A stretch of DNA of 57,180 nt from positions 1 through 57,180 of the forward strand of contig CAZOVA010000004.1 in NCBI GenBank assembly GCA_964583625.1. Direction: 5' to 3'. The first letter of the stretch is position 1; each line of letters begins with the position of its first letter. Shown here one piece after another: positions 49,415 to 56,000 of the stretch. The DNA comes from an uncultured Pseudomonadales bacterium. GTDB taxonomy: Bacteria > Patescibacteriota > Microgenomatia > UBA1400 > PJMF01. The notes beneath the pieces are model-generated. The model was not told where the DNA came from. It saw nothing but the letters and a program-made list of their open reading frames with translations, and did not search any database. The translations under genes were made by a program, and so were the position numbers.

Positions 49415-49489
49415 GGTGGCTGTAGCTCAATTGGTTAGAGCGCTGGGTTGTGGTCCCAGAGGTTGCGGGTTCAAGTCCCGTCAGCTACC
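49415..49489 (+). tRNA. tRNA-His(GUG)
   Basis: G-1, GTGGCTG...CAGCTAC-C73; CTGGG-TTGTGGT-CCCAG; GCGGG-TTCAAGT-CCCGT. Confidence 0.95.
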
Positions 49490-49711: not shown

Positions 49712-50467
49712 ATGAAAATGAAACTGACTATTTTAACGCTAACAATGGCGACATTATTAATATTGCCCTCAGTTGCGCAGACCAAAGATGGGCCAATGGG
49801 TCAAAATGGAAATAGTCCGCTTGACAACCAAGAGAATATGGCTCAAGAACGACAGCCGGCAGAAATCCCCCCAACTCCAGCTAATAATCAGACTCAAAAT
49901 CAAATGGCAATACAAAATCAAGGGGAAGATTCACGATTAGATATTGATCTTATGGAAAAGGAAAGGCTGGGTCTAGGTATTGGTCAAAATATAGCTAGTG
50001 ATGAAACAAATTTTCAAGATCAAGATGAAGTTGAAATTAAAAACACAGGTGGAGTGGCCAGTCAGGTGCAAGCATTACTCCAATTTAGGGTTGAAGGAGG
50101 AATTGGGGATCAAGTCCGTCAAATAGCCAGAGAGCAGAATCAAGCCCAATTAGAAATTCAAGATCAAATATCAAAACTTGACTCCAAAGGAAAGGTAGCT
50201 AGATTTTTAACGGGGACTGACCGCCAAACAGTTAAAACCTTAAAACAGCATTTGGAACAAAACCAACTTCGAATCCAGCAACTGGAAAACTTACAAAGCC
50301 AGTTAACAAACCAAGAAGATATTGCTCAATTAGGGGAAGCCATCCAGTTAATAACCAATCAAAATACGTCTTTGCAAGAAAGAGTAATGGCGGAAGATAA
50401 ATCAGGCGGTCTTTTTGGCTGGCTAATTGATTTGTTTGAAAAAATAAGTTTTAAAAAGACAAACTAG
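49712..50467 (+). CDS. Secreted Gln/Asn-rich coiled-coil protein
   Basis: SD AAGGAG, signal peptide, low-complexity N half, heptad-rich C half. Confidence 0.75.
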   Translation: MKMKLTILTLTMATLLILPSVAQTKDGPMGQNGNSPLDNQENMAQERQPAEIPPTPANNQTQNQMAIQNQGEDSRLDIDLMEKERLGLGIGQNIASDETNFQDQDEVEIKNTGGVASQVQALLQFRVEGGIGDQVRQIAREQNQAQLEIQDQISKLDSKGKVARFLTGTDRQTVKTLKQHLEQNQLRIQQLENLQSQLTNQEDIAQLGEAIQLITNQNTSLQERVMAEDKSGGLFGWLIDLFEKISFKKTN

Positions 50468-50702: not shown

Positions 50703-51263
50703 ATGCCAGCAAGAAACTGGAATAAAATCAAAGCTCAATTTGCTAAAACTACCGACAAACTCGGTCGAACAATAGATGGTGGTATTATCGATGTTGTTGT
50801 CGGTCTCAATCTTAATAATATTCACACTATTAGTTCTTGTGAGGGGCATTTGCAATGGGGGATAGCTGGTCCTTGGATCGATATTGAAGCAGATATTGAT
50901 ACTTCACCTCTAAAAGAGCGAGCCCAAAGCTTATATCATAAAATAGAACAAGACTTTGACCGACTAACGGAAAAACAAATCTTCCAACTTTCTAGTCAAG
51001 CTCGAAAACTACAAAAAAAAGCTCAGGCGCCACATTTATTGGAAAGGGAGAAACTTCTCAAACTTCTGAGTGAATTTTATCAAACAAGAAAAGTTCCTTA
51101 TCAAGTACAACTACATGCTGTGGATTATGATTTTGCTACTACTAGATTGTGTAATATTGGTGCCAGCATCCAAGAAAGCTTGCCAGCTAAATTAAAAGAA
51201 AGAAATCTTAAAAAATTTCAGGCAGAAATTCGAGCTTTTGGAGATTTTTTAAAGAATAAATAA
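50703..51263 (+). CDS. Hypothetical protein with T-x-S-S-C-E-G-H motif (TYW3-like N-terminus)
   Basis: IDGGIIDVVVGLN...HTISSCEGH...PWI. Confidence 0.7.
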   Translation: MPARNWNKIKAQFAKTTDKLGRTIDGGIIDVVVGLNLNNIHTISSCEGHLQWGIAGPWIDIEADIDTSPLKERAQSLYHKIEQDFDRLTEKQIFQLSSQARKLQKKAQAPHLLEREKLLKLLSEFYQTRKVPYQVQLHAVDYDFATTRLCNIGASIQESLPAKLKERNLKKFQAEIRAFGDFLKNK

Positions 51264-51354
51264 TTCCTAAAAACAGGCTCTGTTCATATTTTTTATTCTA
51301 CTATTCTAATTCGTTTTTACTTTTCTAAATCTCATCTTTCTATTTTTGTTTTTA

Positions 51355-51558
51355 TGTTAAAATCGAATAAACAATAAGCGGGTGAGATCATTAGCGATCG
51401 AAATTTGCTTGTTCTTTAAAAAGTTAAGAAACAGCAAATTTTTCTTGATGGACATTTGGAGCTAAAGTGACTTAGCTCTAGTTTTCCATCAAGAAATTGA
51501 TGGGCTGGCGGATATAAAGATTGGCAAGAAAAATTTTCAACGAGAAGGAGGCACTAAA
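51355..51558 (+). promoter_or_regulatory. Extended -10 promoter and highly structured 5' leader of the PIN-PhoH gene
   Basis: TG-T-TAAAAT at 51355-51363; several perfect inverted repeats across 51401-51536; SD AAGGAGG at 51545-51551. Confidence 0.7.
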
Positions 51559-52965
51559 GTGACTAAGACCAGCGAACGCTGTACCTATGTTCTAGATACC
51601 AATGTCTTACTCAACTTCCCCGACTGTGTTAAAGACGACACTTTCACTGATACTGATATTTATATTCCTGAGGTTGTTATAAATGAACTAGAAAAATTTA
51701 AAAAGGAGGACACCGAAAGGAGTTTTCGCCAGAGAATAGTAACTAGAAACCTCAATGATCTAAGGGCTTACGGTAAGTTAAAGGAAGGAATTGCTCTGCC
51801 CAATGGCAATACTTTAACTATCGTCTCTGCCAATGGTGAAAGAGAAATCAAACTAATGGATGATTGGGATCCTCATGATCCAGATCATTTGATTGCAAAA
51901 ACTGCTGTCAGATTAGGAACGGAGAGAGGAAGGGAAAATACCTACCTAGTGACAAGCGACCTGCTTCTAATCCTGAGAGCCGACACTATTGGTCTGCAAA
52001 CCAAAGAGTTAACAGCAGACCAAAATAGTTTGTACACTGGCTACCGAGAGGCTTATGCCAAACCACACCATTTCTGTAATCTTTTACTGAAAACTAATCA
52101 ATGGGAGCTGGATAGCGAAGAATTGTTTTATCTAAGTGATGGTGGAGAAAAAATCCCACTGGTCGAAAGACCAAGAATTAATGAATTCGTTGCTATTTAC
52201 AATCCCAGCAATCCAACAGATTTCAGACTGAGCCGATTCAATGGCGAATGCTTAGTCCCTCTAAAAAATGATAAGAGAACAGTTTCTAATATCTCCGCCA
52301 GAGGTATAGTGCAACGGTTTATGATGGAGTCGCTTATTGTTCCTGAGGACGAACAAAGACTAGTTATCATTGAAGGACCCGCGGGTGGCGGAAAAACTCT
52401 TTTGTCTTTGGCTGCTGGTATCCAGCAAAAAAAGGATAAACGTTTTTTTCGTTTTTTCTATACCCGAGCTAATGTCGAAGCTGACAATTCCTATGGATTT
52501 TTGCCTGGAGACATCGATGAAAAAATGGACTGGCTTCTCAATCCTATCTATGACAATCTTTTTGCCATAGATAATAACCTTAAATATAGCACTCAACCTG
52601 TTTCAGTGGAAAAGAAACAAGAAACTCTCGACATTTTTGGTATTTCTGCCAGAGCTCTTAATCATATGCGCGGACGATCTTTACCAAAATGCTTTGTCTT
52701 GGTAGACGAAGTTCAAAATCTAACGCGTGAGCAAGTGAAAATGGTTGTCACACGAGCTGGCAAAGGCACTGTTGTAGTTTTAATTGGTGATACCAGCCAA
52801 ATCGACGCACCTTATCTCAACTATTTCAACAATGGCTTAACTCATGCTTTCAATGCTATGGACAATGAGCCACTTTGTTACCGTCTCCGCTTGGGCCCGC
52901 AAGAAAGCCAACAAAGAAGCGTTTTAGCCCAAGCAGCCGCTGCTCGCCTCGGTCGTCACTACTAA
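51559..52965 (+). CDS. PIN domain-PhoH ATPase fusion (PhoH2/YlaK type)
   Basis: YVLDTNVLL, VINELEKFK, VTSDLLLILRA (PIN); GPAGGGKTLL, GFLPGD, MRGRSL, DEVQNLT, GDTSQID, NGL, RSVLA (PhoH). Confidence 0.94.
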   Translation: MTKTSERCTYVLDTNVLLNFPDCVKDDTFTDTDIYIPEVVINELEKFKKEDTERSFRQRIVTRNLNDLRAYGKLKEGIALPNGNTLTIVSANGEREIKLMDDWDPHDPDHLIAKTAVRLGTERGRENTYLVTSDLLLILRADTIGLQTKELTADQNSLYTGYREAYAKPHHFCNLLLKTNQWELDSEELFYLSDGGEKIPLVERPRINEFVAIYNPSNPTDFRLSRFNGECLVPLKNDKRTVSNISARGIVQRFMMESLIVPEDEQRLVIIEGPAGGGKTLLSLAAGIQQKKDKRFFRFFYTRANVEADNSYGFLPGDIDEKMDWLLNPIYDNLFAIDNNLKYSTQPVSVEKKQETLDIFGISARALNHMRGRSLPKCFVLVDEVQNLTREQVKMVVTRAGKGTVVVLIGDTSQIDAPYLNYFNNGLTHAFNAMDNEPLCYRLRLGPQESQQRSVLAQAAAARLGRHY

Positions 52966-54962: not shown

Positions 54963-56000
54963 TTAAAATTGAGCTAAAAAATCCAGATTGCCACTATAAA
55001 AATGACGGATATCATCAATTTTGAGACCAGGACGCAAAGTATAAGTTCTTTCAATACCCCAGCCAAAAGCAAAACCAGTATAAATAGTCGGATCAATTCC
55101 TGCTGCTCGCAAAACTGCGGGGTGAACCATACCCGCTCCACCTACTTCGTGCCAACCAGATTTGCAAAAGCGACATTTTTGTCCTTCAATTTCACCACTG
55201 CCGTCACAAAGTTGACAAGAAAAATCAATTTCAAAACTTGGCTCAGTAAACTGAAAGTGAAAAGGTCTCAAGCGATTTTTAGTCCCAACGCCATAGAATT
55301 CTCGAGCAAAAAAATCCAAAACTCCTTTGAGATGAGTTAAATTAATGCCCTTATCAATGACCAAACCTTCGAATTGATGAAACATCTGAGTATGAGTAGC
55401 ATCTTGCTGACGACGATAGCAACGACCGATATTGATCATCCGAACGGGGGGTTGACCTAGCCGAGCCATCTCGTGAACTTGACCATTAGAGGTATGAGGA
55501 GTAAGAATCCATTTTGGTGCGTCTTTGCTTTCTCCCTGAGGATGATTAACAAAAAAAGTTTCCCATTCATCTCTTGCTGGGTGATTGGGCGCCATATTGA
55601 GCTTGGTGAAAGCATTGTCATCGATATCTAGTTCTGGATGTCTCACTCGCACAAAACCCAAACGAGCAAAAATTTGTTCAATTTCTTCAATAGCTTGAGA
55701 GATCGGATGAAGGTGGCCTTGAGGCTGGTCTTGATCAGCGGGCAAAGTAAAATCAAAGTTTTTTTGCTCATCAACCGAATAAGTCTCCTTTTTTTGTTCC
55801 ACCAACTCTTCCAAAGCCTTTTTTAATTGATTAAGAATCTCACCAGCCGTTTTTTTGTCCTCAACTACAGCGATTTGTCCAGAAATTTCTTTGAACAAAC
55901 CTTTCTTACCTAAGTATTTAGTAAAAAAGTTTTCACTTCCGTCCTGACTTGCCTGTTGTAGAAGGGCAGCGGCTTGGTTTTTTAAATCTTGCACTTTCAT
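54963..56000 (-). CDS. pheS: Phenylalanine--tRNA ligase alpha subunit
   Basis: GHLHPI, HPARDEWETF, PHTSNGQ, DATHTQMFHQFEGL, FQFTEPSFE, GAGMVHP, GFAFGWGIER. Confidence 0.97.
   Translation of the reverse strand: MKVQDLKNQAAALLQQASQDGSENFFTKYLGKKGLFKEISGQIAVVEDKKTAGEILNQLKKALEELVEQKKETYSVDEQKNFDFTLPADQDQPQGHLHPISQAIEEIEQIFARLGFVRVRHPELDIDDNAFTKLNMAPNHPARDEWETFFVNHPQGESKDAPKWILTPHTSNGQVHEMARLGQPPVRMINIGRCYRRQQDATHTQMFHQFEGLVIDKGINLTHLKGVLDFFAREFYGVGTKNRLRPFHFQFTEPSFEIDFSCQLCDGSGEIEGQKCRFCKSGWHEVGGAGMVHPAVLRAAGIDPTIYTGFAFGWGIERTYTLRPGLKIDDIRHFYSGNLDFLAQF

Follow-up and report, generated by a model that had tools for sequence, protein, structure and literature searches.

Structured 5′ leaders mediate the autoregulation of the ribonuclease genes rne, rnc, and pnp; the elements involved in Escherichia coli are hp2/hp3 in the rne 5′ untranslated region (UTR) and, in the pnp leader, a cut by RNase III followed by removal of the upstream strand by PNPase. 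Type III toxin-antitoxin (TA) systems are marked by tandem repeats and by a terminator that separates the RNA from the toxin gene. PhoH2 is conserved across bacteria and archaea, and its targets and regulation are poorly understood. The preferred substrate of the mycobacterial protein is a duplex RNA that carries a single-stranded 5′ overhang (PMC7390352), and the protein inhibits growth unless its protein antitoxin PhoAT is present (PMC7390352; PMC4826407); the mycobacterial phoAT-phoH2 pair has been described as a type II TA module (Andrews and Arcus 2015, as cited in PMC4826407 and PMC7390352). Here we describe the leader of a phoH2 gene in a 57,180-nucleotide (nt) stretch of contig CAZOVA010000004.1 (hereafter the window, meaning this whole stretch). 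The leader is very probably a conserved cis-acting RNA of phoH2. We give a probability of about 0.4 to the reading that it controls PhoH2 synthesis post-transcriptionally, via mRNA processing or stability, and most likely by autoregulation.

A conserved, structured leader upstream of phoH2

The region examined is 51355-51564 on the plus strand of the window, and the phoH2 leader was taken as 195 nt. Its elements, with the gene that follows them, are these:

51355-51363, plus strand: extended -10 element TGTTAAAAT (TGnTAnnAT), read in the sequence and present in 13 of 13 distinct orthologous leaders
51373-51413, plus strand: H1, the 5′-proximal hairpin (conserved core 51378-51408), found by minimum free energy (MFE) folding, blastn, covariation, RNAalifold, and a covariance model (CM)
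51413-51423, plus strand: the invariant box TCTTTAAAAAG (consensus UCUUU[A/G]ANAAG), then an A-rich tract, in 13 of 13 distinct leaders
51441-51496, plus strand: H2, the long hairpin, found as inverted repeat I1 and by MFE, covariation, and RNAalifold
51497-51503, plus strand: seg3 (TTGATGG), which duplicates part of the H2 5′ arm and can pair with seg2 at 51486-51492 (CCATCAA) across a GAAA loop
51544-51551 and 51559-51561, plus strand: the Shine-Dalgarno (SD) sequence GAAGGAGG and the GTG start codon, with an N terminus that aligns with orthologs
51559-52965, plus strand: phoH2, a PIN_4 and PhoH fusion of 468 amino acids (aa), from Pfam domain matches

The PhoH2 proteins nearest to that of the window are 45%–50% identical to it and form 14 clusters (at 90% identity); the next tier, from Clostridia and others, is at most 38% identical. 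Upstream DNA of this clade, taken from GTDB genomes and assemblies, gave 13 distinct leaders: the window; L057 and L162; L007 (identical to L161 and L166), L006, L158 (identical to L159), L163, and L164; L009 and L155; L156 (identical to L157); and L151 (identical to L152) and L153 (identical to L154). Five contigs of the window's own species carry 100% identical leaders and are uninformative for comparison. This species is not represented among GTDB representatives, and the proteins nearest to the PheS of the window bear the names Pacebacteria, Microgenomates, or Patescibacteria. A scan of metagenome proteins gave no further clade member with upstream DNA.

The architecture shared by these leaders runs, from 5′ to 3′, extended -10, H1, box and A-rich tract, H2, seg3, SD, and start codon, with variants in L156 and in L151/L153. 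When the window leader was compared with all loci by blastn, a block of ~40 nt (51383-51423) was found at 82%–88% identity 5′ of phoH2 in L057, L007, L006, and L009. RNAalifold, run on a plain MAFFT alignment, recovered H1 and both parts of H2 unaided (32 pairs, 16 of them with compensatory changes), and the consensus fold consists of two separate hairpins and a single-stranded box. The 195-nt leader has an MFE of -57 kcal/mol (z -5.2), and none of 200 dinucleotide shuffles is as stable. The opposite strand folds to -41.8 kcal/mol only; the plus strand is 15 kcal/mol more stable because several of the helices use G·U pairs. As the stability lies mainly on the plus strand, a sense-strand RNA is indicated. 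The same region of the window holds the inverted repeats I3 (51401-16/51426-41), I1 (51441-65/51472-96), and I6 (51436-47/51525-36).

The outer stem of H1 is GCAAAU/AUUUGC in the consensus and GCGGGU/AUUUGC, with three G·U pairs, in the window, where it is extended to 11 bp. Inside it lie a 2×3-nt internal loop, an inner stem (GAUC 51386-89 with GAUC 51396-99), and the loop AUUAGC (consensus AWWAGC). Across the gap-free ortholog alignment, 90.9% of the cells are paired (slid controls reach at most 45%), and 4 of 11 pairs have changed on both sides (G-C to A-U, U-A to C-G, and U-A via U·G to C-G). The covariance model R1 gives the H1 of the window 66.5 bits. In L151/L153 the H1 sequence is wholly different (AAGACGG/CCGUCUU), with a hairpin at the same place. 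The box, which is predicted to be single-stranded or to form a marginal UCUU/AAGA mini-hairpin, is also kept in leaders that have no H2 (L156) or an unrelated H1 (L151, L153).

Both the H1 loop and the box are conserved in sequence, beyond pairing alone, and TCTTnnnnAAGA is a DNA palindrome (the TCTT-N4-AAGA box). These features, together with the retention of the element where H2 is lost (L156), could be explained by a separate regulator acting in trans, which might be an RNA-binding protein at the H1 loop or box, or a DNA repressor with the palindromic box and the inverted repeats as its operators 3′ of the promoter. We consider this quite unlikely: H1, H2, and seg3 have G·U pairs and compensatory changes, which favor RNA recognition over the DNA form, the H1 sequence is fully replaced in L151/L153 with the hairpin retained, and there is no syntenic candidate regulator gene, the flanking genes differing between lineages.

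The H2 hairpin and a competing partner for its 3′ arm

The lower stem of H2 in the window is formed by seg1 (51441-51452, TTTCTTGATGGA) and seg2 (51485-51496, TCCATCAAGAAA); above it are a 3×3 internal loop, an upper stem (51456-65 with 51472-81), and a loop (51466-71). H2 is a near-continuous duplex of ~25 bp in all 10 H2-bearing leaders. In its lower stem, pairing reaches 95.6%, compensatory changes affect 9 of 16 pairs, and none of 500 shuffles is as good. The base of the stem (UUCUUGA/UCAAGAA) is conserved and the middle covaries, being GAUGGA/UCCAUC in the window, GACAGC/GCUGUC in L007, UAGCAGC/GCUGCUA in L057, and GAUAGC/GCUAUC in L009. When up to 3 mismatches are allowed, H2 is single-copy in the window.

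Directly 3′ of H2, a lineage-specific seg3 is present in 10 of 10 H2-bearing leaders (UUGAUGG in the window, UUGGCAG/UUGACAGCUAA, the first of these in L007 (G·U), UUUUGACAGCUAA in L158, AGCAGCAAA in L057, and GAUAGCAAAAAA in L009). The pairing of seg2 with seg3 and the formation of H2 are mutually exclusive. Per sequence, between 0 and 46 of 500 shuffles gave a seg2:seg3 duplex as good as the natural one. In the register that matches seg1, 82.7% of positions are paired and 6 of 11 pairs are compensatory, compared with 25%–50% paired in slid controls, although these counts are biased towards pairing because the register was picked by similarity to seg1. If seg1 is blocked or cut off, the seg2:seg3 hairpin appears in the predicted MFE structure of essentially all orthologs. 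The leaders from which seg3 is missing, L156 and L151/L153, are those with no comparable H2. From this comparison, H1 and the box are the core of the leader, and H2 with seg3 is a module that is gained or lost as a unit. A further observation is that L151–L154 have a short hairpin (GTCAAGA/TCTTGAC) in place of H2, in which the conserved TCTTGAC pairs upstream instead of downstream.

Energies for these alternatives were obtained from the nearest-neighbor model alone, which ignores kinetics. An earlier note on this stretch had proposed a bistable RNA switch, with a Fold A made of a hairpin at 51401-51441 plus H2 and a Fold B made of seg2:seg3 plus an outer 12-bp helix. For the window leader, the model gives an ensemble free energy of -64.5 kcal/mol; the complete Fold B reaches -54.0 kcal/mol (P~4e-8), and seg2:seg3 alone -58.5 kcal/mol (P~6e-5). 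The seg2:seg3 state lies 2.9–13.1 kcal/mol above the ground state in the 10 H2-bearing orthologs. At equilibrium, the modeled leader is therefore in the H1 plus H2 fold and not bistable, and by the same model the seg2:seg3 fold can only be populated if the 5′ arm of H2 is unwound, cut off, or kept away.

All of the sequence elements and helices that had been described are present where they were placed (we read the inner stem-loop as 51456-51481), and the downstream gene does encode a PIN-PhoH protein (Pfam PIN_4 and PhoH). Conservation and covariation in homologous leaders, which the note had set beforehand as one of the observations on which the idea should stand or fall, were found for H1, H2, and seg2:seg3. 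The proposal of competing helices holds for H2 and seg2:seg3, which exclude each other and both carry compensatory changes; the other two helices proved to be specific to the window. Their distal arms are as follows:

51434-51441, plus strand: GCAAATTT / GCAAAUUU, the downstream arm of the hairpin 51401-51441, in a window-specific insertion
51525-51536, plus strand: CAAGAAAAATTT, a 12/12 complement of 51436-51447 (repeat I6), window-specific and not above chance

The first helix, AAATTTGC/GCAAATTT, has a predicted occupancy of ~0.003, and its downstream partner lies in an insertion that orthologs do not have. In these orthologs AAATTTGC / AAAUUUGC (51401-08) is the 3′ arm of H1 and pairs upstream, not downstream. 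The second helix, AAATTTTTCTTG (51436-47) with CAAGAAAAATTT (51525-36), has no counterpart in any ortholog and was equaled by 37 of 300 shuffles. The most conserved parts of the leader, H1 (51373-51413) and the box (51413-51423), were absent from that description. The earlier proposal is thus partly supported: the kind of element, a cis-regulatory RNA that has not been described before and has helices in competition, was correctly named, and the details were wrong.

Search for a regulatory output

Intrinsic terminators were sought in the leaders, and none is conserved. The inner hairpin of the window (51456-51481), followed by TTTT, was flagged as terminator-like, a feature that is specific to the window, and no U-run is conserved after either H2 or seg2:seg3. 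The flagged hairpin, and a run of six U residues after the upper stem in L009, are what could be said for a transcription attenuator in which upper H2 and its U-run terminate a fraction of transcripts and the alternative pairing tunes read-through. Such a device is extremely unlikely, given that the U-run is short and unconserved (CUUUAGC in the L007 group, UUGCUUGC in L155), that the L007 and L009 leaders contain no terminator-like site, that the larger H2 encloses the hairpin, and that no leader peptide is kept in frame across lineages. The window does have open reading frames (ORFs) of 20–32 aa in the leader, and neither their frame nor their length is conserved among orthologs.

The SD has an unpaired probability of ~0.5 in the window, and this is unchanged with seg1 blocked or removed. 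Pairing of the box or of the seg1 base (UUCUU) as an anti-SD was considered and rejected, in that the best duplexes often touch the SD and are no better than those of dinucleotide shuffles. Complementarity of an H2 arm to the phoH2 translation start likewise did not exceed shuffles or cross-lineage pairs. With respect to riboswitches, there are conserved unpaired bases in the H1 loop, its internal loop, and the box, and no multi-helix junction; an expression platform (a terminator or an SD-sequestering helix) was not found in the leaders.

These results bear on the possibility that the leader is a ligand-responsive or bistable riboswitch, in which a small molecule or temperature shifts Fold A to Fold B to control translation. 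H2 and seg2:seg3 are indeed exclusive, both with comparative support, and the lack of a match to any known family leaves room for a new class. We nevertheless hold this to be very unlikely, because the alternative fold is 3–13 kcal/mol less stable in all orthologs, no junction of several helices carries conserved unpaired bases, no terminator is conserved, and the SD and start codon are equally accessible in both states. In addition, complementarity between the box/seg1 or H2 and the translation initiation region is not above shuffles or cross-lineage controls, and the remaining Fold A and Fold B helices are window-specific.

Some sequence similarities do exist between H2 and translation starts, and these are recorded here as observations. 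A 13/14 direct repeat relates CTAAAGTGACTTAG at the H2 apex (51462-51475) to CTAAAGTGACTAAG at 51554-51567, which covers the spacer, the GTG start, and two phoH2 codons. With GGAG 5 nt upstream and the mini-ORF GUG-ACU-UAG, the apex copy resembles a decoy ribosome-binding site. L007, L161, and L166 also have CTAAAGTGAC in the H2 apex, though their own start region differs. In L009 (~1466-1473), L155, and L156, phoH2 starts at a TTG within (T)TCTTGAC, the heptamer found at the base of the H2 5′ arm. The H2 3′ arm (AUCAAGA) could pair with the TTG start codon in these three, a complementarity that is not significant relative to shuffles.

No PhoAT-like antitoxin ORF is conserved between the promoter and phoH2, and the upstream protein genes are unrelated between lineages. 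AUG or GUG codons within H1 of several lineages were considered as starts of a PhoAT-like peptide and set aside, as frames and stops differ. TRF found no tandem array in 51200-51650, where there are only short two-copy repeats. One might imagine that a processed H1-box-H2 RNA binds PhoH2 and replaces PhoAT, acting as an RNA antitoxin or decoy with type III-like logic, and in keeping with this the RNA is always and only beside phoH2, no antitoxin ORF is conserved upstream, and PhoH2 is toxic in mycobacteria without PhoAT (PMC4826407). This has a very low likelihood in our view, because type III hallmarks (tandem repeats and a terminator between RNA and gene) are lacking and toxicity of the window PhoH2 would have to be assumed by analogy. 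Taken together, because neither a terminator nor a leader peptide nor SD masking was found, control via mRNA processing or stability, or via protein binding, is likely.

Known families and distribution

The idea that this leader RNA is undescribed, also put forward in the earlier note, agrees with the database searches. An Rfam 15 covariance search of the 57-kb window returned only tRNAs above threshold, and a permissive search (E<=10) of 51200-51650 gave just sub-threshold matches of eukaryotic miRNA/snoRNA type, as did the same search of 7 orthologous loci. Such matches indicate no more than the presence of a long hairpin. A full-text literature search found no description of a phoH2 leader motif.

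A covariance model of H1 and the box gives 66–74 bits on clade members and at most 21 bits on all else in 628 kb (the whole 57-kb window plus ~135 loci of more distant PhoH2 genes); in the window it finds no second copy of the element. A regular expression for the box preceded by a hairpin, applied to 713 kb of loci plus the window, matched only 5′ of this phoH2 clade. In IMG/VR viral contigs, neither the PhoH2 clade nor the leader motif was found. As judged from these searches, the leader RNA is single-copy, clade-specific, and dedicated to phoH2, and, with its cis linkage to that gene, we take it to be a new, undescribed RNA motif of narrow phylogenetic range.

Several other candidates were tried and rejected. 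The pattern GATCAWWAGCGRTYRAAWTTTG occurs in GTDB representatives at 4 known loci and at 5 more, the latter being chance matches that score 13–20 bits with the covariance model across the pattern alone. The pattern TTTGN{4,5}TCTTTAANAAGAAAA gave only chance matches among the matches listed. An interspersed repeat, such as a miniature inverted-repeat transposable element or a palindrome of the repetitive extragenic type, does not fit an element that is single-copy and always 5′ of phoH2. The likeness of CTGTCA in the L007 lineage to a PhoB box is lost in other lineages because the arm covaries, and a possible promoter inside H1 of L009 (TTGACA-18-CAAAAT) is not conserved in the window.

The gene, its transcription unit, and its surroundings

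In every lineage (13 of 13 distinct leaders), TGnTAnnAT lies 6–14 nt 5′ of the first hairpin. The genes 5′ of the leader vary by lineage (ABC2_membrane/ABC transporter, glycosyltransferase, aldolase, Inhibitor_I42, or tRNAs, and family-less ORFs in the window). Because the extended -10 is kept although the upstream genes differ, we infer that the phoH2 leader has its own promoter, and it is thus a putative separate transcription unit under that predicted promoter. The spacing from SD to GTG in the window is 7 nt.

The Pfam matches of PhoH2 are PIN_4 at 5e-19 (residues 10–150) and PhoH at 1e-43 (residues 245–448). The protein therefore has the N-terminal PIN domain with acidic residues and the C-terminal PhoH P-loop ATPase that mark the PhoH2 class. 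It matches the NCBIfam equivalog model 'RNA 5'-3' helicase PhoH2' over its full length with 131 bits, below the cutoff of 680, and for that reason is regarded as a distant member of the family. The PIN acidic residues D13, E43, D109, and D134 are intact, as are Walker A (GPAGGGKT) and Walker B (VDE), and from these the window PhoH2 looks like an active enzyme.

Between a tRNA pair and the leader, the window has ORFs of 251 and 186 aa at 49712-50467 and 50703-51263, both on the plus strand; neither belongs to a Pfam or NCBIfam family, and in other lineages no counterpart lies 5′ of phoH2. The phoH2 leader is directly preceded by tRNA genes in L156 and L151. Just past the stop codon of the nearer ORF (51261-63) there is a weak hairpin, AACAG-GCT-CTGTT, followed by CATATTTTTT (51272-51294). 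It may be a poor terminator, too GC-poor to be listed by the terminator scan, and given this poor hairpin, some read-through from the upstream ORF into the phoH2 leader could occur.

Strains of the window's species differ in this neighborhood. At a breakpoint near ~49483, the 3′ end of the tRNA at 49416-49489, L001 and L002/L005 are 100% identical rightward and unrelated leftward. To the left, L002/L005 have a 981-aa DEAD/ResIII/restriction-endonuclease-like gene and an ORF of 85–86 aa, and the window has two tRNAs and coaE. That the strains diverge exactly where a tRNA ends would fit an element or island that has integrated there. On the other side of phoH2, its 3′ neighbor is a gene with a Bro-N domain (often phage-associated) in L159 (3019-3867) and L161 (1931-2773), and LemA and M48 peptidase genes in L151/L153.

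The order phoH2, aminotransferase gene, pheS is kept between the window and the L009/L155 genomes, in which PhoH2 is 46%–50% identical and PheS 73%–74% (window coordinates 51559-52965 and 54963-56000, respectively). Because the identity is far below that of PheS despite conserved gene order, phoH2 seems to be evolving unusually fast for a syntenic chromosomal gene.

A model for control by processing of the leader

In the model that we favor, the module of box and H2 would be engaged by PhoH2 itself, a 5′-3′ RNA helicase joined to a PIN RNase, or else by an RNase with housekeeping functions, for example RNase III. The engaged enzyme would cut or strip the 5′ arm of H2, and the freed 3′ arm would then re-pair with seg3, giving a processed mRNA with a new 5′-proximal hairpin. 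This mechanism, including the factor that acts on the leader and the direction of its effect on expression (up or down), is what we infer. Autoregulation is the single most likely reading because the element is exclusive to a gene for an RNA helicase/RNase, because there is no PhoAT-like ORF, and because the box next to a duplex resembles a PhoH2 substrate. It is favored further by what is known of the substrate and toxicity of mycobacterial PhoH2 and by the analogy with rne, rnc, and pnp.

It should be noted that several observations count against control of this kind. There are just ~5 independent lineages behind the comparison of leaders, same-species copies being 100% identical, and the seg2:seg3 counts carry the register bias described above. 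In L156 the SD follows directly on H1 and the box, H2 and seg3 both being missing, so that at least one lineage can do without the H2/seg3 module. Among full-length, seg1-blocked, and 5′-truncated RNAs, no consistent change in accessibility was found in any downstream element, and thus no output can be read from sequence. The motif of mycobacterial PhoH2, AC[A/U][A/U][G/C], is not enriched, with 0 occurrences in the window leader versus ~1.7 expected; it matches the box as ACAAG in L009, L155, L156, L151, and L153, and the leaders of the window and L057 lack it. Finally, the box is invariant wherever pairing is possible, so that a role in RNA is indistinguishable there from that of a DNA operator.

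Much of the same evidence would also suit a housekeeping mRNA-stability element without PhoH2 feedback, in which H1 is a 5′ stabilizer, H2 is an RNase III site, and seg3 re-forms a protective hairpin. H1 begins ~0–8 nt from the expected transcription start site, the ~25-bp duplex of H2 in 10 of 10 leaders is long enough for RNase III, seg2:seg3 is the predicted fold once seg1 is removed, and no SD masking was found. This explanation is unlikely, in our estimate, because a generic stabilizer would not need an invariant loop and box, nor would it be limited to one gene (there is no second copy in the 57-kb window or at other loci).

An extension of the autoregulatory reading, and one to which we give little credence, is that the leader is the natural RNA partner of PhoH2. 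The enzyme might be loaded onto it, unwind it, and cut it; the RNA might in turn titrate or gate the enzyme as an RNA antitoxin or decoy, with seg3 resetting the fold at each helicase passage. If true, the PhoH2 family would gain its first physiological RNA target to be defined, together with its first case of control by RNA, and the leader would be among the first regulatory RNAs characterized in bacteria of the Candidate Phyla Radiation (CPR). Here a small clade of Patescibacteria, CPR bacteria of ultra-small size in which hardly any regulatory RNAs are known, keeps a dedicated, covarying leader with no antitoxin gene found. Practically, the leader offers a cheap in vitro substrate with which PhoH2 specificity could be tested, as it combines a single-stranded box, a long duplex, and an alternative partner. 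If autoregulation is true, the leader becomes, next to those of rne, rnc, and pnp, another example in which an RNase senses its own mRNA, here by means of an unusual spare-arm refolding device. If autoregulation is false, what is left is a new cis-regulatory RNA motif that is well supported, though narrowly distributed (about 14 protein clusters at 90% identity).

Comparison with known systems

The leader resembles the trp/pyr attenuators and riboswitch platforms in that the middle one of three segments pairs with either neighbor, both pairings showing compensatory changes. Unlike the trp/pyr attenuators, it has no fourth segment, terminator, SD-sequestering helix, or leader peptide, and its states are far from isoenergetic. 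With type III TA systems (ToxIN) it shares a non-coding RNA that is immediately 5′ of an endoribonuclease gene and is possibly processed by the enzyme, but it has no tandem array or intervening terminator, and the toxin family is another one.

Mycobacterial phoAT-phoH2 has the same PIN and PhoH architecture and a dedicated upstream element in the same transcription unit. The element here is a non-coding structured RNA, not an antitoxin ORF; moreover, the proteins are distant and the target motif is not enriched.

Here a ribonuclease gene has a 5′ UTR of its own that is both conserved and structured, and on this ground the leader can be placed with the autoregulatory leaders of RNase genes, a class that is functional and does not imply homology. 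There is no homology in sequence or structure (no Rfam match) to the rne, rnc, and pnp leaders, the enzyme here is PIN-PhoH, and the spare copy of the 5′ arm, seg3, is lacking from those leaders. What the phoH2 leader has in common with those leaders is a dedicated structured 5′ UTR and a long hairpin whose 5′ strand, if lost, would leave the mRNA with a different 5′ end structure, and the level of control proposed for it, mRNA stability rather than SD masking, is the same as theirs.

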